NCBI GenBank assembly: GCA_045652835.1
Contig: JAZOLE010000129.1
Span: forward strand, 933 to 64,932
Direction of reading: 5' to 3'
Source: Eubacteriales bacterium
GTDB taxonomy: Bacteria > Bacillota > Clostridia > Oscillospirales > CAG-272
DNA: 64,000 nucleotides
Shown here: positions 890 to 40,820 of the stretch, piece after piece
How the letters are laid out: each line of letters starts with the position of its first letter
Position numbering within the stretch: position 1 is the first letter of the stretch
Translations under genes and position numbers: made by a program
The notes under the pieces: generated by a model
Databases searched by the model: none
What the model saw: only the letters and a program-made list of their open reading frames with translations
Told to the model about the DNA's origin: nothing

Positions 890-3121
890 TTAGTTTGCGG
901 GAACGTCGTAGCCGTACTCGGTCAGCCAGTTGACGTAAATGGTGTAGGGAGAATTGCCCTTGGACAGGTCGTCATTGGAGGGATCATCGTCAGCATTGAG
1001 TTCCTCAGCAGCGTCGGGATCGTAAGCAGGATTGTTTGCCTTCTTGATCCACGCGTTGTCCTTAACGGATTCCTTGAGCTCTTCCTTGAGTGCAGTGATC
1101 AGATCCTCAAGCTCGTTGATGTTAGCACAAGCATCCAGTCTTGCCTGGATTTCTGCGCTCTTAACAGTCATCTTGTCGATCAAACCAGCGGGAACGTACT
1201 CAGGATCAGTCTTAGGCTTAACACCGGAATAGAAGGGGTCGATATCCAAGCCGTTTTCATCGCCGTCCAGTACGGTGTTGAAATCAAAGCCAAGCAGCGG
1301 GTCGATCAGAGACTCGTTGTTCTGCTCTCTTGCGCCTTCCCAAGCATCAGCTCTCTTGCCCTCGCCGGGATGTGCCATAAATACGTTACCGGTCTTTTCC
1401 AGCGTCATCTGATAATCATCATTGAGCATGGTCAGCACCTGGCCTTCGCTGGGCTCGCTGAGTTCATAGTTCTTGCCCTCAACGCCATACTGAAGCAGGT
1501 TACGAATGGTAGAGTTAGTGTTCAGATACGTAATGATATCCATGGATCTGCCGACTGCAAAGTGAGAATATGCGCTGACAGCGAACATGTTGCCATACAG
1601 CTCGTTCTCGGTTGCTTCGGGATACTCTGCAATTACAGCATAGTAGGTCTTGCCGTTGTAAGTGCAGTAGCCGTTCTTTTCCATATCCTTCTTGAAGGTG
1701 GAGTCGCCCTTGACAAAGTCAACTGCAACGGTCTGACCCTCGGCAGCTTCACCGAAGTAGCCTTCAAACTTGAAGTTCATCAGTTCACGGAGAATGTCCA
1801 GATAATCAGCCTTGGTGAACAGGTTGCTGAACTGCAGACGGATGCTGCCACGGTTACGGTTTGCAGCGCCGCCGTAAACAGTACCGAACATCGAGAAGGT
1901 GTCACCTTCCTGATCGTAGTAGTAGTTGTACAGCTTAACGGGCTCCTTGTCCTCGCCTTCTGCATCACCGATGTCACCGATATCGCCCTCTTCTTCCTCG
2001 TTGCCTTCCTGCTCCTCATAGGTCATGGACCAGTACCAAACCAGCATGTTCATGCACTCTTCGTAGGTAGCGTTCAAAGGAAGTACGTCAGGCTCAAACT
2101 TTGCGATATCAGCAAGGAAGTACTTGGTGTCAAGCACGTCTTCAACACCGTCAATGGTGTAGTAGTACTTGTCAAACAGCCCCTTGTCGATCATCATGTA
2201 GGTATATTCGCCAATGGAAACGTTATTGGGAACTGCATAAGTAGAACCGTCGATCTGTACACCGCTGAGCAGCGTTGCGGAGATGTAGTCGGTCAGCTTT
2301 CTGGAAGCACCGGTGATCTCCTCGTCCAGAGGCTGGATCCACTCGCTATCGATGAAATCATTGTAGCGCTCAAAGCCGGACAGATAGATGATGTCAACCT
2401 GATTCTTTCTCAGTTCAGGATATACGATCTCTGCGATCTCGTACTCGTTGTAGGAGGTAAGTTCCTCAACAACGCCGGTCTCTTCTTCGTCCTCGTCGTC
2501 ACTTACGTTAGCGAACTCCTGATACTGAGGATATTCTGCATAGAATTCCTTCTTCAGCTTTTCAGTATCGGTTCTGCCATCTTCCTTAGCGTCCTTGAGG
2601 TACTTCTTGAGTGCCTTGGCAGCCTTGTCCTTGAGCAAAATGTACTCTTCGTTCAGGATCATGATCTTAGTCAGCTTACCGCACTTTTCAAGGAATGCGG
2701 AAACTTCCTCTTCGGAAGCGGTTGCCTTCAGATCTTCGTATTTATCGCGGTCAAACTCCTGCACACCGTAGTACTGCTCTTCGGTGTAGTAATACAGGTC
2801 CAAATTAACCTTGAACTTAGACTTGGTGATCTTGGTAATTTCAGCCTCTACCTTATCGTAAGCAGCTCTGGTTGCTTCAGCCTCGGCAACTGCCTTGTTG
2901 TAAGCATCACCCTCGCCGTACTGTGCGAGAAGCTTGGCCTTCAGCTGTGCCATTTCCTCATCGGTATTGGCAACTTCCTTGTCGGAAATGACCCACATGG
3001 TCAGCGTAATACCGGAGATCTGCTCAACGTCTGCCGTGTCCTTCTTTTGGTTACAACCGGTCAGGAGAACAGTCAGCAGCATCAGCATGCTCAGCGTCAG
3101 ACAGATAAATCTGTTTCTCAT
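890..3121 (-). CDS. large extracellular solute-binding lipoprotein (ABC-type SBP-like), orphan
   Basis: Signal peptide with lipobox MRNRFICLTLSMLMLLTVLLTGC. GGAGG RBS before ATG at 3121. SBP-like body with acidic inserts. No permease gene is adjacent. Confidence 0.65.
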   Translation of the reverse strand: MRNRFICLTLSMLMLLTVLLTGCNQKKDTADVEQISGITLTMWVISDKEVANTDEEMAQLKAKLLAQYGEGDAYNKAVAEAEATRAAYDKVEAEITKITKSKFKVNLDLYYYTEEQYYGVQEFDRDKYEDLKATASEEEVSAFLEKCGKLTKIMILNEEYILLKDKAAKALKKYLKDAKEDGRTDTEKLKKEFYAEYPQYQEFANVSDDEDEEETGVVEELTSYNEYEIAEIVYPELRKNQVDIIYLSGFERYNDFIDSEWIQPLDEEITGASRKLTDYISATLLSGVQIDGSTYAVPNNVSIGEYTYMMIDKGLFDKYYYTIDGVEDVLDTKYFLADIAKFEPDVLPLNATYEECMNMLVWYWSMTYEEQEGNEEEEGDIGDIGDAEGEDKEPVKLYNYYYDQEGDTFSMFGTVYGGAANRNRGSIRLQFSNLFTKADYLDILRELMNFKFEGYFGEAAEGQTVAVDFVKGDSTFKKDMEKNGYCTYNGKTYYAVIAEYPEATENELYGNMFAVSAYSHFAVGRSMDIITYLNTNSTIRNLLQYGVEGKNYELSEPSEGQVLTMLNDDYQMTLEKTGNVFMAHPGEGKRADAWEGAREQNNESLIDPLLGFDFNTVLDGDENGLDIDPFYSGVKPKTDPEYVPAGLIDKMTVKSAEIQARLDACANINELEDLITALKEELKESVKDNAWIKKANNPAYDPDAAEELNADDDPSNDDLSKGNSPYTIYVNWLTEYGYDVPAN

Positions 3122-3200
3122 TGGAATTCCTCCTTGCAAATCGTAGCGCCTTATCCCCACCCCTTTTGGGCAGAGTATCAGCTATTATTCATACCAATAT

Positions 3201-3229
3201 ATTTTACACTATAATTGCCGCTATGTCAA
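3201..3229 (-). promoter_or_regulatory. sigma-A type promoter for the SBP gene
   Basis: The reverse complement reads TTGACA-17 nt-TAAAAT. Confidence 0.6.
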
Positions 3230-3431
3230 GGGAAATTTTGGCCTAGTTTGTAAACCTTTTTTGACCTTATATTCCCATACGTTTCGGCAGCTTGAAATCC
3301 CCCGTCATTTCCTACAAATCAGCCTTGTTTTCTTTGTTGGAAATTGCTGATGAAAGGTGGCAAAAGGGACGTTTTTGTGTCGTTTCAGAGGCTTTTGGCT
3401 CTCTGACAATTCACAATTTTTTTACAATAAA

Positions 3432-4550
3432 TCAGTCCAAAAATCCCTTGAGATGGCGTGCGCGGCTGGGGTGACGCAGCTTACGCAGTGCCTTTGCTTC
3501 GATCTGACGGATACGCTCTCTGGTGATTTCAAACTCCTGACCAACCTCTTCCAGCGTTCTGGTTCTGCCGTCATACAGACCGAAACGCAGCTTGATAACG
3601 TGCTCTTCTCTGGGAGTCAGGGTGTGCAGCTCGCGCTCGATGACCTCACGCAGAATGGTAGCGGATGCAGCCTCGGAGGGAGCGGGGGTATCCTCATCGG
3701 GAATAAAGTCGCCAAGGTGGCTGTCTTCCTCTTCACCGATAGGAGTTTCCAGCGAAACGGGGTCCTGCGCGATCTTGAGGATCTCGCGTACCTTGTCCGC
3801 GCTCATACCCATCTTCTCACCGATCTCCTCGGCAGTTGCTTCTCTACCAAGCTCCTGCAGCATTTGTCTGGAGTATCTGGACACCTTATGGATGGTCTCT
3901 ACCATGTGTACGGGAATACGAATGGTTCTTGCCTGATCTGCAATGGCACGGGTGATCGCCTGTCTGATCCACCAGGTTGCATAGGTCGAGAACTTGTAGC
4001 CCTTGGTATAGTCGAACTTGTCAACTGCCTTCATCAGACCCAGGTTACCCTCCTGAATCAGGTCAAGGAAGAACATACCTCTGCCTACGTATCTCTTTGC
4101 AATGCTGACTACCAGACGCAGGTTGGCTTCCACCAGCTCCATCTTGGCATCCTCATCGCCTGCTGCCATTCTCTCGGCAAGCTCGCGCTCCTTGTCTGCG
4201 GTCAGCAGCGGTACGCGGCCGATCTCCTTGAGATACAGACGCACGGGGTCGTCAATGGCAAGACCCTCTTGACCGAGCAGTCTTTCCATATTCTCACCGT
4301 CGCTGTAACGCTCTACTTCACTCTCGATCTCATCCATCTCGGCAGAAGAAATCTCATCGCCAAGCGGAATGCCGCTATCCTCCAATGCCTCATACAGCTT
4401 GTCTATACTGTCAAGGTCGTAATCCATTTCCTCCAGTGCATCGTCAAGATCCTCCGCGGAGAGATCGCCCTTCTTTCCCTTGGCGACCAGTTCCTCCATG
4501 GTGATCTTCTTTTCCTCGTGTTCACCGGTTACGATTTTGGTCTCATTCAT
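3432..4550 (-). CDS. rpoD: RNA polymerase primary sigma factor
   Basis: Sigma-70 regions 2-4 are present ([34 protein letters not shown]). It follows dnaG. ATG at 4550 (MNETK) is preferred over the RBS-less GTG at 4571. Confidence 0.93.
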
Positions 4551-6364: not shown

Positions 6365-7393
6365 TTATCTGCCCCTCCAAACCTGCGGAATGAACAGATC
6401 GTTATAAAGCTGAATTGCATATCTGTCAGTCATGCCGGACACGTAGTCACACACGCAACGCTCAATCGATTCGTTGTCTATATTACGGCGATAGGATTCG
6501 GGCAGCTTTTCGGGGTGCCCCACAAAGTACTCGTAAAGCTTGATCAGCATATCCTCGGCTTTTCCCTCTTCGCCCTTGGCAACGGGATTGAGATACACGT
6601 TCTCAAACAGGAAATCGCGCAGCTCGTCGGTCGCCTGCTTTACCTCGGGGGTCATGCAGATATGATCCTGATCGGTAGAGGCACGAATAACCGAGGTCAC
6701 CATAGTGTTGATGCGCTGGGAATGCTTTTGACCAAGACACTCGCGCAGGTGCGCGGGAATATCCTGGATGGTAAGTATTCCTGCACGGCAAGCGTCGTCT
6801 ATATCGTGATTGATGTACGCAATTTTATCGGCGTATTTGACCAGTGCACCCTCAAGAGTGCTTGCGCCGCAATAGTCGATTGAGCCGGAATGGTGCTCAA
6901 TACCATCTCTGACCTCCCAAGTCAGGTTTAGACCTTGCCCGCTATTTTCCAACACCTCGACAACGCGAACGCTTTGCATATAGTGCGAAAAATCGGGAGA
7001 AAAGCATTTTTGCAAAGCACGCTCACCTGCATGACCAAAGGGGGTATGGCCAAGGTCATGACCAAGCGCAGCGGCTTCGGTCAAGTCCTCGTTCAGACGC
7101 AGGGCGCGCGCCATGATACGTGCGATCTGCGTAACCTCAAGGGTATGGGTCAGACGGGTACGGTAGTGGTCGCCCTCGGGAGCGAGAAAGACCTGCGTTT
7201 TGTTCATCAGACGGCGGAAGGACTGGCAATGCGTGATCTTATCGCGGTCACGCTGGAACTCGGTACGCAAGCGACAGGGTTCCTGATAGCGCTCGCGTCC
7301 TTTGGTTTGCGAGGTACGGAAAGCGTAGGGAGAGAGAGAAGATTCTTCCCTTTCCAAGAAAATGTTTACTAAGTTATCCTGTGTATGATCCAT
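6365..7393 (-). CDS. dGTPase-like HD-domain triphosphohydrolase
   Basis: HD motif RLTHTLEVTQIAR...GHDLGHTPFGHAGE. Abuts the dnaG start. Confidence 0.85.
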   Translation of the reverse strand: MDHTQDNLVNIFLEREESSLSPYAFRTSQTKGRERYQEPCRLRTEFQRDRDKITHCQSFRRLMNKTQVFLAPEGDHYRTRLTHTLEVTQIARIMARALRLNEDLTEAAALGHDLGHTPFGHAGERALQKCFSPDFSHYMQSVRVVEVLENSGQGLNLTWEVRDGIEHHSGSIDYCGASTLEGALVKYADKIAYINHDIDDACRAGILTIQDIPAHLRECLGQKHSQRINTMVTSVIRASTDQDHICMTPEVKQATDELRDFLFENVYLNPVAKGEEGKAEDMLIKLYEYFVGHPEKLPESYRRNIDNESIERCVCDYVSGMTDRYAIQLYNDLFIPQVWRGR

Positions 7394-7944: not shown

Positions 7945-8586
7945 TTACTCTCCGATTTCATGATAGTCGTATCTCTCGCCCGTCTTTTCAGGCTCGCATT
8001 TTCCGTTGCTGATCTCCGAGATGCGTCGCCAAAGCGGTTCGCGATGCTCGTCCCTGACCGCAAAGCGTATGGTCACGCAATCCGCGTAATCCACCTCGTC
8101 CACCAAAGCGCCCATCTTGGGCAGCAGCAGATTGAACTTCTGGTAATCCGAGTACGAGCATACCATGCTGTACTCACCATACTTAAAATACGTAATAATA
8201 TGCGCAGCATCCAGCGCAATACGCGCTGCGTGCGAATACGCGCGCACAAGTCCTCCTGCACCAAGCAAAACACCGCCAAAATAGCGCGTGACCACCACAA
8301 CCATGTCGGTAGCCCCCGATTTGCGCATGCATTCCAGCACAGGCACGCCTGCAGTTCCCTGCGGCTCACCGTCATCGCTGTATCTTGCCACAATGCCGCC
8401 ACTCAGCAAATACGCCCATACGTTATGCGTGGCATCCGAATACTCGCGCTGCTTTTGCTTGACAAAGGCAGTCGCCTCTTCCTCGGACCTGATGGGCGCG
8501 GCATGCCCGATAAAGATCGAGCCGCGCTCTTCAAATTCTGCCGACGCCACCTTTTCCAGCGTCATGTAAAGCTGCTCGTTTGCCAT
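7945..8586 (-). CDS. YigZ/IMPACT-family protein
   Basis: Family-typical SIFIGHAAP...DDGEPQGTAGVPVL...VVTRYFGGVLLGAGGL. Confidence 0.8.
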   Translation of the reverse strand: MANEQLYMTLEKVASAEFEERGSIFIGHAAPIRSEEEATAFVKQKQREYSDATHNVWAYLLSGGIVARYSDDGEPQGTAGVPVLECMRKSGATDMVVVVTRYFGGVLLGAGGLVRAYSHAARIALDAAHIITYFKYGEYSMVCSYSDYQKFNLLLPKMGALVDEVDYADCVTIRFAVRDEHREPLWRRISEISNGKCEPEKTGERYDYHEIGE

Positions 8587-8588
8587 GC

Positions 8589-9107
8589 TTATCCCCTATC
8601 CAGACCTAACGCATCATAGATCGCGTCACGCACTACACCGTAGCGGAATGCCACGGGCTGCGCAATGCCGTCGGTGTGCATCAGTTCCTCAAAACGCTTG
8701 ATGGTGGTAAATCTCGCAGCTACCGTCTCGCCCTGTTGCAGCACAACCGCAGAGGCAGGCAATCCCGTTCTGTACAGATAGCACTCCACAAACGCAGACG
8801 GCTCACGGATCACGCGCAACAGCTGCAGATCCTCTTTTTTGGCTTTCAGCCCTGTTTCTTCCTTTAATTCACGTACCGCAGCCTCAATACCGCACTCGCC
8901 AGCAAGTGCGCCGCCTGCCGTGATCTCCCAAACGTTCGGGAAATTGGGTTTCTCGGGTGCACGCAGGGTCAAAAGGATCTCGCCCTTATCATTGACTGTA
9001 AAAATACTGACAGACAACACGTAGCAGCCCTCGGGAATGCTCTCACCACGCACGATGGGCGTGGCGAGATTATTGCCTTTAGCGTCAAAAATATCTCTTT
9101 TTTCCAT
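8589..9107 (-). CDS. NUDIX hydrolase
   Basis: Nudix box GGALAGECGIEAAVRELKEETGL. Confidence 0.85.
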   Translation of the reverse strand: MEKRDIFDAKGNNLATPIVRGESIPEGCYVLSVSIFTVNDKGEILLTLRAPEKPNFPNVWEITAGGALAGECGIEAAVRELKEETGLKAKKEDLQLLRVIREPSAFVECYLYRTGLPASAVVLQQGETVAARFTTIKRFEELMHTDGIAQPVAFRYGVVRDAIYDALGLDRG

Positions 9108-9110
9108 AGA

Positions 9111-10424
9111 TCAAATCTCCCAATCAGGCTTTTTGACCTTGCTTGCATCGGGATCAAACTCGCGCAGCATACCGCGCACCTTGGCGTCCACAACCGCGGT
9201 CACTCGGACAGCATCCGCGCCGTACTCCACGTCCTCCACCGTTGCCATACGGTAAAGCGTGTTGAGCGCCCCCTGCTTGGCATTGGGAATCACAAAGGTC
9301 ACGCGTGCCTTGCCTGCGTGGATCATGCTCTCCAGCATTTCGGCAAACTGCTCGTATCCCTGACCCGTCAGCGCAGAAATGTGCGTCTGATGCTCGGCAT
9401 CTCTGCCGCTTACGCGAGGCAGCGTACCCATGACCAGATCGCACTTATTGAACACGTAAAGCGTAGGCTTGCCTGCAGCACCCAGCTCACAAAGCACCTG
9501 CTCGGTCACCTCAAGCTTTTGCTCGTGCTCGGGGTCGGACGCGTCAATGACAATAACCAGAATATCCGCATACACCGCCTCGTCCAGCGTGGAACGGAAT
9601 GCCTTGATCAGATGGTGGGGCAGCTTACGGATAAAGCCGACCGTATCGGTCAGGAGAATACTCTCGCCGCCGGGCAGCTCGAATTTTCTTGTGGTAGGGT
9701 CAAGCGTGGCAAACAGCTTGTCCTCGGCTAAGATACCTGCATCGGTCATGCGGTTGAGCAGCGTAGACTTGCCTGCGTTGGTATATCCCACAATGGCAAC
9801 CTTGGGCAGACCGCTCTTATCGCGCGAGGCGCGCATGGTCATGCGGTTCTTTTCCATTTCGCTTAGCTGCGCCTCCAGCGCGGTAATACGGCGCTGAATG
9901 TGTCGGCGGGCGCTTTCCAGCTTGGACTCACCCGGTCCGCGCGTACCGATACCACCGCCCAGTCGCGAGAGCTGCGTGCCCTTACCGATCAATCTCGGTG
10001 CGGTATAGCGCAGCTGCGCCAGCTCGACCTGCAGCTTTCCCTCACCCGTCACAGCATGGCGGGCAAAAATATCCAAAATCAACATCGAACGGTCAATAAC
10101 GCGCACGTCATGACCGATATCGTCCTCTAAATTTCTGATCTGCGCAGGCGAGAGATCCTCGTCCGTGATGACCAGGTCAATATCGTTATTTTCGCACAGC
10201 TCCGAGATCTCGCGCACCTTACCCGAGCCAATCAGCGTACGGGGGTCGGGCGTATCCTTGCTTTGCACCACGCGCACGATCGCCACGCCGCCTGCGGTAT
10301 CCAGCAGTCTCTCCAGCTCGTCAAGTCCGGACTCAACGGTCTGCGCATCAGCCTCGCGCGTCACAATGCCCACAAGCAATGCGCGCGTTTTAGCCTCAAT
10401 TTCCTTGTTTTGCAAGCTTTGCAT
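9111..10424 (-). CDS. hflX: GTPase HflX
   Basis: HflX N-domain plus G-domain (GYTNAGKST, DTVGF, NKCD). GAAGGAG RBS. Confidence 0.9.
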   Translation of the reverse strand: MQSLQNKEIEAKTRALLVGIVTREADAQTVESGLDELERLLDTAGGVAIVRVVQSKDTPDPRTLIGSGKVREISELCENNDIDLVITDEDLSPAQIRNLEDDIGHDVRVIDRSMLILDIFARHAVTGEGKLQVELAQLRYTAPRLIGKGTQLSRLGGGIGTRGPGESKLESARRHIQRRITALEAQLSEMEKNRMTMRASRDKSGLPKVAIVGYTNAGKSTLLNRMTDAGILAEDKLFATLDPTTRKFELPGGESILLTDTVGFIRKLPHHLIKAFRSTLDEAVYADILVIVIDASDPEHEQKLEVTEQVLCELGAAGKPTLYVFNKCDLVMGTLPRVSGRDAEHQTHISALTGQGYEQFAEMLESMIHAGKARVTFVIPNAKQGALNTLYRMATVEDVEYGADAVRVTAVVDAKVRGMLREFDPDASKVKKPDWEI

Positions 10425-33696: not shown

Positions 33697-35646
33697 TTAT
33701 TTTTTTGGAACATATAACGCACGCATGGCGTTAAGCACTGCCAGGATCATGACGCCCACGTCTGCAAAAATGGCAACAATGGGAGGCAGCGTGCCCACAA
33801 AGGGCAAGAGGCTGAGAAGTAACACCACAGCCTTGACGCCAATGGCAAACACAATGTTCTGTCGCACGATGCGCAGCGTTCTGCGTGCAATATCAATGGC
33901 GGTTGCCACCTTGGCAGGGTTATCGTCCATGAGCACCACGTCGGCTGCCTCGATTGCGGCATCCGAGCCAAGCGCACCCATGGCAATGCCCACGTCACCT
34001 CTTGCGAGCACGGGCGCATCATTGATGCCGTCACCCACGTACACGACCTTGCCCTTGGCAGACTTCTCTGCAAGCAGCTGCTCCAGCTTTTCCACCTTGC
34101 CGTCGGGCAGCAGCTCGCTGTACACCTCGTCAATACCTAATGCCGTACCGATCGCCTTGCCAGTGGCAGAGGCGTCACCAGTCAGCATGACCGTCTTTTT
34201 AATGCCCAGCTTACGCAGACGCGCAATGCCACGCGCTGCATCGGGCTTGATCTCGTCGGATACGATGATGTGCCCCTCGTATTCGCCGTCCACCGCCACG
34301 TGCACCACCGTGCCCACCGCGTCACACTCGTGCCACTGTGCACCAATGCTGCGCATGAACTTGCGGTTGCCTACGCAGACCTGCTTGCCGTCGATCATTG
34401 CCTTGATGCCATGCCCTGCGATCTCGCGCACCTCACCAACGCGGCTGTTGTCCACCTCTTTGGCGTACGCTTGCTTGAGCGAGCGCGAAATGGGGTGATC
34501 CGAATAGCTCTCGGCAGTGGCTGCCAAGTCAAGCAGCGCGTGCTCGTCAATCGTTTCGGGATGAATGGCAGTGACCTTGAAGTTACCCTTGGTCAGCGTG
34601 CCTGTCTTGTCATATACAACGGTTTCTGCCTTGGCAAGCGTTTCAAGATAGCTTGAGCCCTTGATCAGAATACCGTGGCGCGACGCACCGCCAATGCCAC
34701 CGAAAAACGACATGGGCACAGAAATGACCAGCGCACAAGGACAGGAAATGATTAAGAAATTGATGGCGCGTAAGATCCACTCGCTCCAAGGGGCGGTATC
34801 AAAGCCGCTGATCAGTCCGATGATCACGGGCGGCAGCACCGCCAAAGCGGCAGCCGAGCACACCACCACGGGGGTATACCAGCGCGCAAAGCGAGTGATA
34901 TACGCCTCGCTCTTGGATTTTTTATCGCCCGAGGTCTCCACCAGCTCCAAAATCTTGGATACCGTGGACTCGCCAAACTCTTTGTCCACACGCACGCGCA
35001 AAACACCGTTCATGTTGATGCAGCCGCTGATGACCGCGTCACCCACCGAAACGTCGCGCGGATTGGACTCGCCCGTCAGCGCAACCGTGTTCAAACTGCT
35101 CGAGCCGTCCACCACAGTGCCGTCCAAGGGCACTTTTTCGCCCGGCTTTACCACGATAATATCGCCAACTGCAACCTCGTCGGGATACACCTCGACAATC
35201 TCACCGTCACGCTCCACGTTTGCGGTGTCGGGGCAAATCTCCATAAGCGAAGCGATTGCGCTGCGGCTCTTGCCGACAGCGATGCTTTGGAACAGCTCAC
35301 CCGTCTGGTACAGCAGCATGACCATGACCGCCTCGAGGTATTCCGGCTCCTGATCGGGGAAAAGACCGATCGAAAGCACGCCCACCGTAGCGATTGCCAT
35401 GAGAAAATTCTCGTCAAACACCTGCCCGTGCAAAATGCCGCGCAGGGCTTTGTACAAAATGTCGTAACCGATGATGAAATACGGTACTAAGTAGCACAAG
35501 GCAGCCGCCCACTCGGGCAAGTGCACGTGTCCGTGGTTTTCCCCGAAATGGCTGTGTCCGCCGATCAATACATGGCAAAGCACAAGCAAAGCAGCCGACA
35601 GGACAATGCGCAAAAGTACCTTTTTTTGACTTTTTTTGAGCTTCAT
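33697..35646 (-). CDS. heavy-metal translocating P1B-type ATPase (Cd/Zn/Co-like)
   Basis: CPC motif (SCPCALVISVP), DKTGTLT, GDGINDAP, His-rich N-terminus. ATG at 35646 is in a TAATG overlap with the upstream HMA gene. Confidence 0.88.
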   Translation of the reverse strand: MKLKKSQKKVLLRIVLSAALLVLCHVLIGGHSHFGENHGHVHLPEWAAALCYLVPYFIIGYDILYKALRGILHGQVFDENFLMAIATVGVLSIGLFPDQEPEYLEAVMVMLLYQTGELFQSIAVGKSRSAIASLMEICPDTANVERDGEIVEVYPDEVAVGDIIVVKPGEKVPLDGTVVDGSSSLNTVALTGESNPRDVSVGDAVISGCINMNGVLRVRVDKEFGESTVSKILELVETSGDKKSKSEAYITRFARWYTPVVVCSAAALAVLPPVIIGLISGFDTAPWSEWILRAINFLIISCPCALVISVPMSFFGGIGGASRHGILIKGSSYLETLAKAETVVYDKTGTLTKGNFKVTAIHPETIDEHALLDLAATAESYSDHPISRSLKQAYAKEVDNSRVGEVREIAGHGIKAMIDGKQVCVGNRKFMRSIGAQWHECDAVGTVVHVAVDGEYEGHIIVSDEIKPDAARGIARLRKLGIKKTVMLTGDASATGKAIGTALGIDEVYSELLPDGKVEKLEQLLAEKSAKGKVVYVGDGINDAPVLARGDVGIAMGALGSDAAIEAADVVLMDDNPAKVATAIDIARRTLRIVRQNIVFAIGVKAVVLLLSLLPFVGTLPPIVAIFADVGVMILAVLNAMRALYVPKK

Positions 35647-35867
35647 TACTTGATAATCACCTTGCAATCGGAATCGACCTTTTTGACAGCCTTGACGATC
35701 TGGGGAATGATCTCCTCAAACTTATCCTCGTCTGCCTCCACGGTCAGTCTCTGCGCCATAAAGCTGACGCTTGCGTAGGTCACGCCCTCGATCTTCTTGA
35801 TTCCCTCTTCCATCTTTGCAGCGCAATGTGCGCAATCGAGGTCTTCCATTTTGAATACTTTTTTCAT
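35646..35867 (-). CDS. heavy-metal-associated (HMA) domain metallochaperone
   Basis: 73 aa with MEDLDCAHCAAKME (CxxC). GGAG RBS before ATG at 35867. The ORF-track extension runs through a repeat. Confidence 0.8.
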   Translation of the reverse strand: MKKVFKMEDLDCAHCAAKMEEGIKKIEGVTYASVSFMAQRLTVEADEDKFEEIIPQIVKAVKKVDSDCKVIIK

Positions 35868-35906
35868 ATCATATCTCCTTTCAAAAGGCATATTTCTCTG
35901 TTTAGC

Positions 35907-35935
35907 ATTATACTCCAAACGGGTGATTTTGTCAA
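35907..35935 (-). promoter_or_regulatory. consensus sigma-A promoter of the HMA/ATPase operon
   Basis: The reverse complement reads TTGACA-17-TATAAT. Confidence 0.7.
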
Positions 35936-35956
35936 GAGAATACCAAAAAACAAATA

Positions 35957-36140
35957 CTCCGAGCGTCATCCTGAGCGAGTGCTGCGAAGCAGCCGAGTCG
36001 AAGTTTTGCGGAATGGAGTTGCAACGCAACGGAATGAAGCAAAACCGCAAGCCATGATACCGGGGACTGTCCCCTGTGTCGTGTCCGCAGGACATGATAC
36101 AGCGGGACTGTCCACCGTGTCGTGGCGTAGCGGGATCTGC
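35957..36140 (+). repeat. family-C repeat, left arm
   Basis: Inverted partner of 36253-36452. Includes a 52-nt block identical in both arms (GGGGACTGTCCCCTGTGTCGTGTCCGCAGGACATGATACAGCGGGACTGTCC). Confidence 0.85.
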
Positions 36141-36182
36141 GATGGATTTTCTCAATGTCTGCTTAGCCTTGGTTACATTTTT

Positions 36183-36213
36183 GTAGCGGACAGTCGAGGA
36201 CGCCTGTCCCTAC
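36183..36213. repeat. REP-like palindrome with GTAG/CTAC at both ends (centre of the family-C palindrome)
   Basis: GTAGCGGACAG-tcgaggacgc-CTGTCCCTAC. Confidence 0.6.
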
Positions 36214-36252
36214 AAGATGTTGTTTGTGCAGGCGGCGTGTCATAAAACGTCA

Positions 36253-36452
36253 GGAGATCCCGCATCAGCGCAACACAGGGGACAGTCCCGCTGTATCATG
36301 TCCTGCGGACACGACACAGGGGACAGTCCCCGAGTGTCGCGCCTCGCGCTTTTGCTCCACTCCGTTGCGTTGCAACTCCATTCCGCAAAAGTTCGACTCC
36401 GTCATTTCGCAACTCGTTGCGAAATTCCTCCGCTCAGGATGACACTCGAGGG
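36253..36452 (-). repeat. family-C repeat, right arm
   Basis: The reverse complement aligns to 35957-36140. One internal hairpin is replaced by a different hairpin. Confidence 0.85.
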
Positions 36453-36524
36453 AAGGTACCGTCTAAAACGACACCTTGGTGTCCCTTGACACCCCGCGAA
36501 AAATATGATAAAATGAAATTACTA

Positions 36525-36590
36525 AAATATTTTCAACTTTTTTCAAAAAAACGTACACATTTGCATCAAAAATGCGTCTATATAGGTAGA
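36525..36590 (+). promoter_or_regulatory. copy M1 of the shared upstream module
   Basis: ..CAACTTTTTTCAAAAA..TTTGCATCAAAAATGCGTCTATATAGGT. Ends 33 nt before ATG at 36623. Confidence 0.45.
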
Positions 36591-36622
36591 GGAACAAAAC
36601 CAAAGCATAGGAGGGGCTACAG

Positions 36623-36952
36623 ATGAAAGAAAAAAAGTACGTCCAATCATACAGAGAACTCTGCAAATCATCGATCCTATTATCCTTGATCATGGTCGCT
36701 CTGCATCTGATGGCGGCATTGACGTTAGATCACGTATTGGGCAGCGGTGCTGTCGGAAAGATGATCTCCTGTGAGATCTTTCTGCACCTGTCCTATATCG
36801 CACTCATTCGATTCTACTCTGAAAACTACAAGCATTTAGTCAAAACCCAAATCATTGAAAAATCCAAAAAGCTGTTTTGGGGCGGCATGATTCCTTTCAT
36901 TGTCAGCGAGTTGATCAATATCGCCGTTCTTGTTTTTTTGATGTTTACTTAA
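36623..36952 (+). CDS. small membrane protein, unknown function (AT-richer)
   Basis: AGGAGG RBS, 109 aa, three hydrophobic segments. Confidence 0.6.
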   Translation: MKEKKYVQSYRELCKSSILLSLIMVALHLMAALTLDHVLGSGAVGKMISCEIFLHLSYIALIRFYSENYKHLVKTQIIEKSKKLFWGGMIPFIVSELINIAVLVFLMFT

Positions 36953-36964
36953 CCGTATATGCGC

Positions 36965-36988
36965 GGACGATTCGTGAATCGTCCCTAT
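36965..36988 (-). repeat. REP-like hairpin (ATAG head)
   Basis: The reverse complement reads ATAG-GGACGATTC-ac-GAATCGTCC. Same design as 22494-22517. Confidence 0.5.
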
Positions 36989-37004
36989 GAATATATATGA
37001 CAAG

Positions 37005-37030
37005 AGAGCGACCGCGCGGTCGCTCTTTTT
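37005..37030 (+). terminator. intrinsic terminator
   Basis: AGAGCGACC-gcgc-GGTCGCTCT followed by TTTT. Confidence 0.75.
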
Positions 37031-37042
37031 GTATCTTTCCCC

Positions 37043-37071
37043 TTTACATTTTTCCATAATTATGATATACT
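37043..37071 (+). promoter_or_regulatory. sigma-A promoter of the GH127-like/GH73-like genes
   Basis: TTTACA-17-TATACT. Confidence 0.55.
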
Positions 37072-37101
37072 GGAAGCATCAAACAAACGGAGGACACTAT
37101 C

Positions 37102-38916
37102 ATGCCCGTTATCGTTTCCGACAAGCTTTGCGCGATTGACGTCAAAGACGTGAAAATGCATGGCATCATAGACGACAAGCTGCGCCTTGTATGCGAGCAA
37201 ACGCTCAAGAAAATTGATATGCATGCCCTCGCGGATTATTTCCGCTATCGCACAGACGCCTTTGCCACGGGTGAATTCTGGGGCAAGCTGATGCGCGCTG
37301 CCTGTATGACATACGCTTACACACATGACGAGCAGCTCTCTTGCGTGATCAAGACCGCTGTGGACGATCTGCTTAGCCTGCAGGATGCCGAGGGCGACCT
37401 GAGCACCTGCCAAAAGGCAACCCAACCCAAGGGCGCATGCGGCAGCGATTTATGGGAGCGCAAGTACGCGCTGATGGGGCTTTTGGAGTATTATCGTGTG
37501 TTTGGTGATCAGCGTGCGCTTGACGCTTGCCGCCGCGTGGTGAAATACACCAACGATCAGGTAGGTGCTGCGCCCAAGACTCCCATCACCGAGACAGGCT
37601 GGGCGTTTTGCGGCATTGAATCCTCGTCCATTCTTGATCCGCTCATGCAGCTTTACGCCATTTGCGGCGAAGAAGCGGCATTGGAGCTTGCAAAGCACAT
37701 CATAGAAGTGGGCTGCTGCGCACGCGAGCATATGTTTGACGCCATCAGAGGCGGCAAAGATCCTTGGGAGATCGGGGGCAACGGTGTACCCAAAGAATCG
37801 ATTGCCAAGGCTTACGAGATGATGTCCTGCTTTGAGGGTCTGCTTGGCTACTACGCAAATACCGGCGACCAAGTTGCTTACGATACGGCTATCATCTTTT
37901 GGAACAAGGTGTATGATCAAGAGATCACGCTGCTTGGCTCGGGCGGTGCGGATGCACCGCGCAATCTCGGCCCCGGCACGGGTGAGCAATGGAATCTGAC
38001 GCGCCAAAACCAAACCAACCCCGACATTGACCTGATGATGGAGACCTGCGTGACCGTCTACTGGATGCGCCTTTGCTATCGTCTGCTTGCCCTGACGGGT
38101 GAGGTCAAGTACGCGGACGCACTTGAGGTCAGCCTGTATAACGCCATTGTGGGCGCGATCCGCCCCGACGGACAGTTCTTTGAATACTTCCCCAAATTCA
38201 ACGGCAAGCGCAATCCGCGCGTCAATTTCTCCTTTAATATAGAGGGCTTTGACCTTTCCTGCTGCACGGCAAACGGTCCTACAGGTCTTGCCATGGCACC
38301 CTATCTTTACGCCATGAAGACAAAGACGGGCTGCGTGCTCAACCTCTACGAAAACGGCAGCTTTACCGTTGGCGGCGTGAGATTTGAGGTTTCCTCGCGC
38401 TATCCCCTGCTCGGCTCTGCTGTACTGACCGTAACCGACTCGGACGCAGACGCTCCTATGGTGCTTGGTCTGCGCGTGCCCACGTTTGCAAAGGATTTTT
38501 ACGCCATTTGTGACGGCAAGTTACTGCCCGGTCAACCCGGCACGTATCTTGAGATCGAGCGCACGTGGCGCAAGGGCGACACAATCACGGTTGCCTTTGA
38601 CATTCCGCTTGTGTGCCACCCCGCACCCAAGGGCGACAACCGCGCAGGCGACAATTTCTGTGCCTTTACGTATGGCGCGATCTTGCTCTCGCGCGACAGC
38701 CGCGATCATGCAGATCCGCTTGCACCGATCGGCAGCACGCAAGTGACCGACTACCGCATCATGCCCTCGGATCGCGGCGGCTATTTGAAAGCAGAAATAC
38801 AGACCGAGTGCGAGATCTTGACGCTGATCGACTACGCATCTGCGGGAAATTCCTGGGCAGAGGACGCAAGCTTTGCCTCCTGGATTCCCACAACCGAGGC
38901 AGAGAACGCGATATGA
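37102..38916 (+). CDS. DUF1680/GH127-like glycoside hydrolase (beta-L-arabinofuranosidase family)
   Basis: 604 aa. (alpha/alpha)6-like N-part. The LSCCTANGP motif resembles the Cys-rich CCxxN site of GH127. Confidence 0.65.
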   Translation: MPVIVSDKLCAIDVKDVKMHGIIDDKLRLVCEQTLKKIDMHALADYFRYRTDAFATGEFWGKLMRAACMTYAYTHDEQLSCVIKTAVDDLLSLQDAEGDLSTCQKATQPKGACGSDLWERKYALMGLLEYYRVFGDQRALDACRRVVKYTNDQVGAAPKTPITETGWAFCGIESSSILDPLMQLYAICGEEAALELAKHIIEVGCCAREHMFDAIRGGKDPWEIGGNGVPKESIAKAYEMMSCFEGLLGYYANTGDQVAYDTAIIFWNKVYDQEITLLGSGGADAPRNLGPGTGEQWNLTRQNQTNPDIDLMMETCVTVYWMRLCYRLLALTGEVKYADALEVSLYNAIVGAIRPDGQFFEYFPKFNGKRNPRVNFSFNIEGFDLSCCTANGPTGLAMAPYLYAMKTKTGCVLNLYENGSFTVGGVRFEVSSRYPLLGSAVLTVTDSDADAPMVLGLRVPTFAKDFYAICDGKLLPGQPGTYLEIERTWRKGDTITVAFDIPLVCHPAPKGDNRAGDNFCAFTYGAILLSRDSRDHADPLAPIGSTQVTDYRIMPSDRGGYLKAEIQTECEILTLIDYASAGNSWAEDASFASWIPTTEAENAI

Positions 38917-40740: not shown

Positions 40741-40752
40741 TCTTCCCTTTTC

Positions 40753-40820
40753 TCAAATTTTTTAACTTTTTTTCAAAAATAGCAGAACTTTTTGCAAAAA
40801 AATGCGTCTATATAGGTGAG
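40753..40820 (+). promoter_or_regulatory. copy M2 of the shared upstream module
   Basis: About 80% identical by eye to 36525-36590. A 20-nt core AAAAATGCGTCTATATAGGT is identical. Confidence 0.45.

Follow-up and report, generated by a model that had tools for sequence, protein, structure and literature searches.

A modular palindrome beside a metal-efflux promoter in a gut Clostridia genome: a probable mosaic of mobile hairpin repeats

The palindrome and its surroundings

The stretch of DNA analyzed here, referred to below as the window, comprises 64,000 nucleotides from an Eubacteriales bacterium (Clostridia; Oscillospirales; CAG-272) and was taken from contig JAZOLE010000129.1 of assembly GCA_045652835.1 (positions 933 to 64,932, forward strand). 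The assembly is a metagenome-assembled genome (MAG) of 2.69 Mb in 191 contigs, 83% complete and GC-rich, and is labelled G000 among the 16 genomes of the genus that were compared. At positions 35957-36452 of the window, next to the promoter of an operon encoding an HMA-domain protein and a P-type ATPase, lies an imperfect palindrome of ~480 bp. We argue that this palindrome is a non-coding, non-autonomous mobile repeat composed of three nested hairpin layers and carried as a passenger between two divergent promoters, a reading to which we assign a probability of roughly 0.7.

An earlier description of this DNA, made from the letters alone and called the sequence-only reading below, had reported a nested palindrome of about 500 bp with inverted arms, and our comparison bears this out. 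The inverted arms fall into three collinear pairs, 36061-36138/36255-36332 (78 nt, 90%), 35983-36065/36329-36411 (83 nt, 81%) and 35960-35977/36431-36448 (18 nt, 94%), and when the element was aligned with its own reverse complement by BLAST, 412 nt matched at 78% identity (E = 5e-81). The motifs named in that reading all lie where it had placed them, including GTAG...CTAC at 36183-36213. The block said to be identical in both arms is present as well, but its length is 53 nt rather than 52 nt (36061-36113 and 36280-36332). The TGTGTCGTGTCC-gca-GGACATGATACA hairpin at 36075-36101, which has its mirror at 36292, is the middle stem of a module that we call D. The features of the locus are as follows; for arms and D modules, the strand given is the sense strand.

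33697-35667, minus strand: P-type ATPase gene (PF00122, PF00702; Pfam match)
35646-35867, minus strand: HMA-domain gene (PF00403; Pfam match)
35907..35935, minus strand: promoter of the HMA/P-type ATPase operon, TTGACA-17-TATAAT, with 12/12 matches; outside the element, 21 nt from its left end
35957..36138, plus strand (sense): left scaffold arm, its head formed by the CGTC tag plus the ATCC half-stem (GTCATCCTGAGCG, 35965-35977), its tail by GGAT-CT (GGGATCT, 36132-36138)
35981..35993, plus strand: first side hairpin (hp1) of the left arm, GCTGC-GAA-GCAGC (GCTGCGAAGCAGC), at a position that is variable across the family
35996..36052, plus strand: conserved AGTCGAAGTTTTGC segment, second variable side hairpin GGAATGGAGTTGCAACGCAACGGAATGAA, then GCAAAACCGCAAGC, as delimited by arm comparison
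36053..36124, plus strand (sense): left D module, a 72-nt cloverleaf of the kind associated with RAYT/TIRYT genes
36139..36254, no strand assigned: polar centre, …TCTCAATGTCTGCTTAGCC… / …GCAGGCGGCGTGTCA…, inverted in the orthologous copies of four congeners
36183..36213, minus strand: GTAG-tagged repeat in the centre (GTAG...CTAC), GTAGGGACAGGCGTCCTCGACTGTCC on the minus strand, assigned from the repeat census of the MAG
36255..36452, minus strand (sense): right scaffold arm, its tail being AGATCCC (36255-36261) and its head CGCTCAGGATGAC (36431-36443)
36269..36342, minus strand (sense): right D module, oriented within its arm like the left D
36404-36425, minus strand: hp1 of the right arm, ATTTCGCAAC-TCG-TTGCGAAAT (ATTTCGCAACTCGTTGCGAAAT), placed by motif location
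36486..36514, plus strand: promoter-like site of the rightward genes, TTGACA-17-TAAAAT, with 11/12 matches; outside the element and kept in congeners

The palindrome thus lies between two divergent promoters, both of which point away from it, and it is in the path of neither. The TTGACA that the sequence-only reading had assigned to the promoter beside the left arm is the -35 of a perfect consensus promoter, and its remark that no metal-sensing regulator gene is adjacent also held, as no regulator gene was found near the HMA operon among the open reading frames (ORFs) scanned. No strong promoter was found inside the element, where the promoter-like sites are weak (9/12 matches).

The predicted RNA fold had an energy of −341.4 kcal/mol for the plus strand (z = −25.7) and −344.4 kcal/mol for the minus strand (z = −24.1), and the predicted DNA fold of the plus strand had one of −199.1 kcal/mol (z = −24.0). 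The predicted stability is therefore far above chance, but the same long rod is obtained from both strands, and in these models the element as a whole has no preferred strand. A search of positions 34000-38500 with the Rfam 15 covariance models returned no relevant match at E <= 1, only chance hairpins.

Arms as the units of a dispersed repeat family

The sequence-only reading had raised the possibility of an insertion resembling a miniature inverted-repeat transposable element (MITE). In agreement with this, the palindrome belongs to a repeat family of which the MAG contains 15 or more full copies and 3-4 solo ones. The head motif GTCATCCTGAGCG occurs 36 times there; 14 head-pairs, together with one copy whose left head is degenerate, make up the 15 full elements, which measure 196-496 bp. 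The pattern GTCATCCTGAGCG-N8-60-AGTCGAAC was present in all 16 genomes of the genus, with 1-58 arms in each, and absent from 15 genomes of other genera; the reversed control pattern gave zero matches. A slightly relaxed pattern applied to 201 genomes of the order matched in only 3 of 121 genera, which come from three families, with at most 62 arms per genome. The distribution of the family across the order is patchy.

When the arms are oriented alike, they share one layout, namely a short flank (CCCCTCG or CCGCCCG), T/C-GTC-ATCC-TGAGCG-RAG, the variable hp1, CG.AGTCGAA, a second domain of which there are four main types, (G)GGAT-CT, and the complement of the first flank. Arm lengths range from 84 to 216 nt, the closing ATCC/GGAT stem having 4-7 bp and its loop 60-180 nt. 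The (T/C)GTCAT head was found in 33/33 arms extracted from the MAG, the tag being CGTC in the left arm of the copy studied here and TGTC in every other arm. The GGAT-C-T tail was found in 31/33; one arm, C145R, has GGGTCT, in which the C after the stem is kept, and the extraction of the remaining one, C106R, had ended early at an internal GAATCT. What stays constant in an arm is the GTC in front of ATCC, the ATCC/GGAT stem itself and the C that follows this stem; everything in between varies.

The arm appears to be the unit of this family. One element may combine arms of different types, and the palindrome is usually a heterodimer. When isolated arms were folded as single-stranded DNA, each was closed by its own terminal helix, within which the ATCC/GGAT stem formed in 2 of the 5 arm-type sequences folded. 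A pair can nevertheless be copied as a whole, as indicated by one ~340-bp heterodimer that is present at six or more loci of G014, in both orientations. No target-site duplication was visible at the 15 copies of the MAG or at the G014 copies, and no longer element with the same termini plus an ORF was found in the MAG. Other copies of the family are found in unrelated contexts, in several cases directly behind a terminator. A literature search on the head sequence found nothing related.

The sequence-only reading had noticed that hairpins are swapped between the two arms, and the same holds on a larger scale. Among 126 arms, hp1 has 69 different sequences, yet its stems are near-perfect (414 Watson-Crick, 4 G·T and 2 A·C pairs). 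Because the stems are both near-perfect and unrelated, the side hairpins look as if they had been replaced wholesale rather than having drifted through compensatory mutations. The hp1 stems of these arms showed no strand (wobble) bias.

We located the left flank of the palindrome in all 15 congeners and read the intergenic regions (loci L042-L056). An element of the family occupies the same junction in 8/16 species (G000, G001, G003, G005, G007, G009, G013 and G015), and the side hairpins differ among these eight orthologous copies; the second side hairpin, for instance, which lies in the 35996..36052 segment, is different in G009, G003, G013 and G015. D is present at this site only in G000, in both arms, and in G013, in the left arm. 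The central GTAG-tagged repeat is present only in G000, the same centre being found without it in G001 and G013. The centre runs one way in G000, G001 and G013 and is inverted in G009, G007, G005 and G003; since G001 and G009 share the left arm and differ in the orientation of the centre, a flip-flop inversion between the inverted arms is indicated. Dimers of the GTAG-tagged repeat take the place of the element in five species, two of which keep a remnant of the family's right end; a nested 27-nt mini unit is found in G012, and about 50 bp or less in G006 and G004. In all 15 congeners the HMA promoter has an intact -35 and -10, whatever adjoins them upstream. That they are kept next to the element, another repeat or almost nothing argues that the operon promoter is not dependent on the element. 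Turnover is not faster than the scale of species divergence, given that the element on contig C142 of the MAG is almost identical in G012.

Truncated heads, TGTCATCCGGCGCACCGTCACCCCG, were observed in tandem, in one to four copies, at the element's left end in L046 (G003), L042 (G009), L044 (G007), L047 (G001) and L053 (G015) and at C41:7285-7307 of the MAG, and mirrored partial ends were stacked at the right end. Repeated insertion beside a head and slippage are candidate origins of these stacks.

Hairpin repeats nested in the arms and the centre

The D module was modelled as a cloverleaf with an outer stem, two direct GGGGACNGTCCCC hairpins and a middle stem. In 33 distinct D copies of the genus, the pairs of this model comprised 894 Watson-Crick, 137 G·T, 4 A·C and 19 other combinations. 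Several of the pairs covary, and alternative local pairing fits worse and breaks at the covarying columns. The preponderance of G·T over A·C (137 vs 4) indicates that D folds on one strand only. Two G-U wobbles in the block shared by the arms had been taken in the sequence-only reading as a hint of strand-specific folding; the hint was sound for the 72-nt D, but it does not extend to the element as a whole or to the scaffold hairpins, for which the counts given above show no such excess.

Sixteen copies of D were found in the MAG, 12 of them inside scaffold arms and all 12 in the same orientation relative to the arm. D was detected in 11/16 genomes and is absent from G014, G008 and G010, all of which are rich in scaffold arms, so that the D family and the scaffold family are independent of each other. 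In G000, free-standing copies of D flank a Y1 (HUH) transposase gene (C83:8366(+), gene 8527-9276, then 9290(−) and 9398(−)), and a 94%-identical gene of G001 is likewise flanked (C2:2605(+), gene 2765-3511, then 3528(−)). The flanking copies are inverted around the gene, with one upstream and, in G000, two downstream. The protein encoded on C83 matched Pfam Y1_Tnp (PF01797) with 60.6 bits, above the cut-off. Its best NCBIfam match was REP_Tyr_transpos (NF047646), the family of transposases associated with repetitive extragenic palindromic (REP) sequences, with 77.9 bits, just under the cut-off of 80; the two other Y1 proteins of the MAG scored 83.2 and 81.2 bits against the same model. A search of the PDB with this protein found nothing. 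We refer to the gene as a REP-associated tyrosine transposase (RAYT) gene.

D is without GTAG and contains, twice per copy, GGGGACAG, a match to GGGGWSAS, a motif known from the terminal inverted repeats (TIRs) of TIRYT genes (PMC3733652). We therefore assign D to the TIR type and not to the GTAG-REP type. One arm provided an orthologous pair of sites, namely an empty site in G009, where CCGCGAGC is followed directly by GCGACG, and a filled site in G013, where CCGCGAGC is followed by D and then by GCGACGCGGGATCT; no target duplication is present. Of the empty and filled sites compared for the scaffold and for D, this insertion of D alone gave a clean comparison. Insertion without target duplication is expected of HUH transposition as known from IS200/IS605. 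The sequence-only reading had gone on to suggest that folding matters at the RNA level. However, as D flanks a RAYT gene in two genomes, its strand specificity is more simply explained by recognition of single-stranded DNA than by RNA, and the strand-specific signal seen in the palindrome is that of the RAYT-associated module.

Two further RAYT-like genes of the MAG carry or adjoin hairpins of their own. The ORF at C55:6865-7404 (minus strand; REP_Tyr_transpos, 81.2 bits) has two inverted GTAGGGGCGGATTCCATATCCGCCC REPs within the frame, at about C55:7083-7108 and 7222-7250, and the frame remains open. The paralogue at C171:749-1498 (minus strand) shares 60% identity with the C83 gene; it has variant hairpins of its own, GTAACAGGGGACAGGCCCTTGTTAC, on its flanks and adjoins a gene for an ArsR-family regulator.

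The central hairpin of the palindrome is one of 29 copies that the MAG contains of a GTAG-tagged REP; GTAG precedes 24 of these copies. The stem of this REP covaries (GGACAG/CTGTCC vs GGACCG/CGGTCC). Near-identical elements of G014 differ in the REP that occupies this central position, or lack one there. In the same genome (loci L069-L083), the centre of the ~340-bp heterodimers was seen to hold either a different GTAG REP or a large extra palindrome, and more conserved modules lie outside the heads, so that the nesting continues outward.

The mini unit is found at the tip of hp1 in several arms, and hairpin tips recur as insertion sites; the single-stranded loops themselves may well be the actual target. 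This unit, (T/C)GTCATYCTGAGCG-NNN-GCGAAGRATCT, is pan-bacterial and was present at 120 loci at least when one genome per species was searched. Among the matches listed, the phyla include Acidobacteriota, Chloroflexota, Bacteroidota, lineages of the candidate phyla radiation (CPR), Cyanobacteria, Proteobacteria, Firmicutes and others. The units often form plus/minus dimers, 20-40 nt apart, with the tags pointing outward as in the palindrome studied here. Among the matches listed from other phyla, T or C precedes GTCAT in 125/136 units and T follows ...RATC in 105/136, the ...RATC itself being fixed by the search pattern. The stem, ATYCTGAGC/GCGAAGRAT, has 9 bp starting with A-T, includes tandem G·A pairs and is closed by a 4-nt GNNA loop. 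Rfam gave no relevant match, only chance hairpins, at the mini-unit dimers of seven other genomes. Judged by its sequence, a scaffold arm looks like a loop-expanded version of this TGTC/CGTC-tagged hairpin repeat.

Proposed origin and alternative explanations

The ends of the arms can be compared with the target of SsnA. The GIY-YIG nuclease SsnA of Neisseria, which has 94 aa and a single domain, cleaves single-stranded DNA beside the NTS hairpin CGTCATTCCCGCG...GCGGGAATC; the three bases that precede the palindrome are important for cleavage and the C that follows it for binding, the hairpin loop is dispensable and can be extended, the enzyme does not act on RNA, and ssn genes are typically flanked by repeats (Chenal et al. 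2025, Nat Commun 16:2388, PMC11893778). The parts conserved in the arms are exactly those that SsnA needs, that is, the bases before the palindrome and the C after it, with the loop left free, which leads us to an Ssn-type reading of the scaffold.

Genes for small GIY-YIG proteins accompany the repeats in related genomes. Eight such ORFs, of 92-101 aa, were found in six congeners (Pfam GIY-YIG, 52-66 bits), and their Tyr5, Tyr16 and Glu63 align, with an offset of one, with Tyr6, Tyr17 and Glu64, the residues mutated in SsnA. Units of the family, among them full palindromes of the type studied, lie within about 130 bp of all eight genes and on both sides of four. Homologues with 43-59% identity are encoded by 13/14 mini-unit-bearing genomes of other phyla, and heads were found within 400 bp of 8/14 homologue genes in other phyla; a motif (regular expression) search among the matches listed found no GIY-YIG ORF directly beside mini units. 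The best match of the GIY-YIG protein in the PDB was weak, to a UPF0213 protein (E = 1e-5). In some congeners the open frames of the small GIY-YIG genes (L265, L263, L267, L266 and L268) run upstream into the adjacent repeat, and N-terminal extensions such as ...APLRMT... are spurious, being translated head, which makes them a trap for annotation.

The scaffold resembles published Ssn-related motifs (SRMs) in having an oriented hairpin whose palindrome is immediately preceded by an HGTC(A/T)(C/T) head and followed by a conserved C, in being dispersed in tens of copies, in the repeat-flanked genes for single-domain proteins of about the size of SsnA (8/8 genes in congeners and 8/14 in other phyla, none having been found in the MAG itself), and in having conserved ends around free loop content where the loop of the SsnA target is irrelevant or extendable in vitro. 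It differs in size, since published SRMs have 20-50 nt, whereas the arms are longer and are paired into palindromes of 196-496 bp, so that only the mini unit is in the published range. It also differs in having tandem G·A pairs and a GNNA loop in place of a GC-rich stem, and the published pattern does not match it. By analogy, then, the scaffold would work like an SRM without being a member of that class under the published definition.

The CGTC/TGTC-tagged REP superfamily (Di Nocera, De Gregorio & Rocco 2013, PMC3733652) provides a second comparison. Its members, which include Neisseria dRS3 and Rickettsia RPE-4/6, have an unpaired CGTC (or TGTC/CCTC) tag, an 8-9 bp stem beginning A-T, T-A and a loop of 4-5 nt; Firmicutes are not among the phyla listed, and no associated enzyme was found (PMC3733652). 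The scaffold shares with them the unpaired tag, the A-T start of the stem, the short tail and the prevalence of inverted dimers (15 paired elements vs 3-4 solo arms in the MAG), and the mini unit, with its 9-bp stem and 4-nt loop, fits the textual definition. The arms, in contrast, do not agree with it in stem and loop; where it has a loop of 4-5 nt, they have 60-180 nt filled with foreign repeats and nested hairpins. For D, the comparison is with REPIN/RAYT and TIRtron/TIRYT systems (Bertels & Rainey 2011, PMC3116915; Di Nocera 2013): D is inverted around a Y1 (HUH) gene in two genomes, is strand-specific, lacks a target duplication and carries the GGGGWSAS motif, and the central hairpin is an ordinary GTAG REP. 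Unlike a REPIN, D is a 72-nt cloverleaf with two direct GGGGACNGTCCCC hairpins and not a doublet of inverted GTAG REPs, 12/16 copies lie inside the arms of another family, and the host belongs to a gut Clostridia lineage and is not a proteobacterium. The bacterial interspersed mosaic elements (BIMEs) of E. coli are similar in being mosaic intergenic clusters in which alternating palindromic units are combined with other short motifs. In the present element, however, the modules are nested, hairpin within hairpin loop, and not side by side, they come from three unrelated repeat systems, and no site for IHF or gyrase is known in it.

On these grounds we propose the following origin for the palindrome. 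The first layer, the scaffold, would consist of two inverted units, each with a (T/C)GTC tag, an ATCC...GGAT stem and a C right after the stem, in which the loop may have grown to its present 60-180 nt of interchangeable side hairpins. As a second layer, D, which would belong to a RAYT-type Y1 transposase gene, may have inserted without target duplication at the tip of the last hairpin of each arm, and as a third layer, a GTAG REP may have landed in the central loop. Each layer's hairpin is probably read as single-stranded DNA by an enzyme of its own. Recombination between the inverted arms would flip the centre, side hairpins would be replaced wholesale over species-level time, and the element would be kept and reshaped by processes acting on single-stranded or extruded DNA. 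We regard it as a selfish mosaic repeat of the REP/BIME/Ssn-motif kind. A regulatory role at the metal-efflux promoter is unsupported, and the element probably has none. The sequence-only reading had itself named, as the outcome that would speak against an effect on the promoter, that the arms stem from a shared mobile repeat and have no effect locally, and this is close to what the data show.

A number of results weigh against this proposal. No small GIY-YIG gene was found in the 83%-complete MAG with Pfam and tblastn searches, which returned UvrC only, and none was found in G014 or G010 despite their many arms. The published SRM pattern, HGTCWYN(0-2)YYVSBRHN(0-5)WNVSBRGN(0-2)RNCYNB, had 17 matches in the MAG vs 17-21 in shuffled sequences, which is chance level; it matches neither the arm head nor either mini unit, while the NTS used as a positive control does match. 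When the rod is fully paired, its heads are in duplex form and would not serve an Ssn enzyme as substrates. A homologue of the RAYT gene went undetected in six genomes that carry D. Finally, a comparison of the flanks of 14 scaffold copies with six congeners, made to find empty and filled sites, did not yield exact junctions, because the intergenic regions are full of other REPs and turn over too fast.

A more far-reaching version of the proposal, which we consider unlikely, is that the large palindromes are landing pads or exchange sites that couple two or three hairpin systems acting on single-stranded DNA; extruded loops would be favoured by RAYT-mobilised repeats, and Ssn-like cutting at both outward-facing heads would drive hairpin replacement and the flipping of the centre. 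If true, this would amount to an undescribed cassette-exchange mechanism for non-coding DNA, and the class of Ssn repeats would be much broader than the published motif, taking in loop-expanded forms and G·A stems in Firmicutes and CPR.

Of the explanations that compete with the mobile mosaic repeat, a structured noncoding RNA fares best, although we judge it improbable. The palindrome would then be a small RNA or a long double-stranded RNA hairpin, for example a substrate of RNase III or a regulator of the neighbouring operons. The very stable predicted fold, the strand-specific G-U pairs and covariation of D, and the GNNA loop and tandem G·A pairs of the mini unit, which are common in RNA, are all consistent with this, as is the report that REP-type repeats located 3' of genes are often transcribed (PMC3733652). 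However, folding is equally good on both strands, and the scaffold hairpins are near-perfect without an excess of G-U pairs; Rfam had no match for the element or for the mini-unit dimers. Both flanking promoters point away and the internal sites are weak, the orthologous copies differ in module content, and because the left and the right D have opposite sense strands, one transcript would not carry both in folding-competent form. The inactivity of SsnA on RNA (PMC11893778) argues in the same direction.

Still less probable is a classical MITE, that is, a deletion derivative of an insertion sequence with a DDE transposase, mobilised in trans through its terminal inverted repeats. The paired termini GTCATCCTGAGCG / CGCTCAGGATGAC with variable internal length, the many dispersed copies, the presence or absence of the element among species and the copying of one heterodimer to several loci would all suit a MITE, but a target-site duplication was seen at no copy, and the MAG contains no longer, ORF-bearing element with the same termini. 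Moreover, the arm is self-contained, also occurs solo and recombines freely with arms of other types, and the conserved ends are a hairpin repeat that ranges from Acidobacteriota to CPR. No insertion sequence was found beside the conserved-end repeat; small GIY-YIG genes were found instead.

We give the lowest probability to the idea that the palindrome is a DNA structure regulating in cis, for instance as a cruciform, topological barrier or binding site for a protein, and was selected to insulate or tune both divergent promoters. The position of the palindrome, 21 nt upstream of a consensus -35 and between divergent promoters, would suit such a role, as would its presence at the junction in 8/16 species and the absence of an adjoining gene for a metal-sensing regulator. 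E. coli BIMEs bind IHF and gyrase, which gives a precedent for protein binding by repeats of this general kind. But the -35 and -10 are identical in congeners in which another repeat, the 27-nt unit or about 50 bp adjoins them, the internal content of the element is not conserved among the species that carry it, other copies lie in the unrelated contexts mentioned above, and common descent within a sub-clade explains the retention in eight species. The influence on this promoter that the sequence-only reading had envisaged is thus disfavoured by the outward direction of both promoters, the lack of a strong internal promoter and the unchanged promoter of congeners without the element.

A hammerhead-like ribozyme was rejected because its CUGANGA core is not matched by CUGAGCG, and a retron, an integron attC site and a plasmid single-strand origin were rejected because copy number and architecture do not fit.

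Two other features of the flanking DNA were observed. The ribosome-binding site of the HMA gene lies within an imperfect palindrome, ATATCTCCTTTCAAAAGGCATAT (window 35869-35891), which could be an operator or a translational hairpin of this operon without an adjacent regulator gene. A 69-nt upstream module ending in GCGTCTATATAGGT is present at 36519-36587 and 40749-40817, where it precedes two groups of plus-strand genes; the two copies are 74% identical to each other, the module is also kept at the orthologous place in congeners, and it may be a shared promoter or operator.

If the palindrome is the mobile mosaic that we propose, a striking structure of this kind at the promoter of a metal pump should not be read as a metal-responsive control element. 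What is new here is the occurrence, in Clostridia, of loop-expanded, heterodimeric palindromes that are accompanied by Ssn-like genes, host RAYT repeats and GTAG REPs, and fall outside the published SRM motif. Elements of this kind interrupt MAG assemblies and give rise to spurious ORFs, a point of importance for annotation, and the published SRM search pattern would miss a pan-bacterial class of such repeats. Hairpin repeats tied to Ssn-type GIY-YIG nucleases would be able to grow into modular palindromes of 200-500 bp, at the tips of which RAYT repeats and GTAG REPs, unrelated systems acting on single-stranded DNA, would insert preferentially. The perfect yet unrelated side hairpins of orthologous copies point to an undescribed process by which hairpins are replaced wholesale and not altered by compensatory point mutation.

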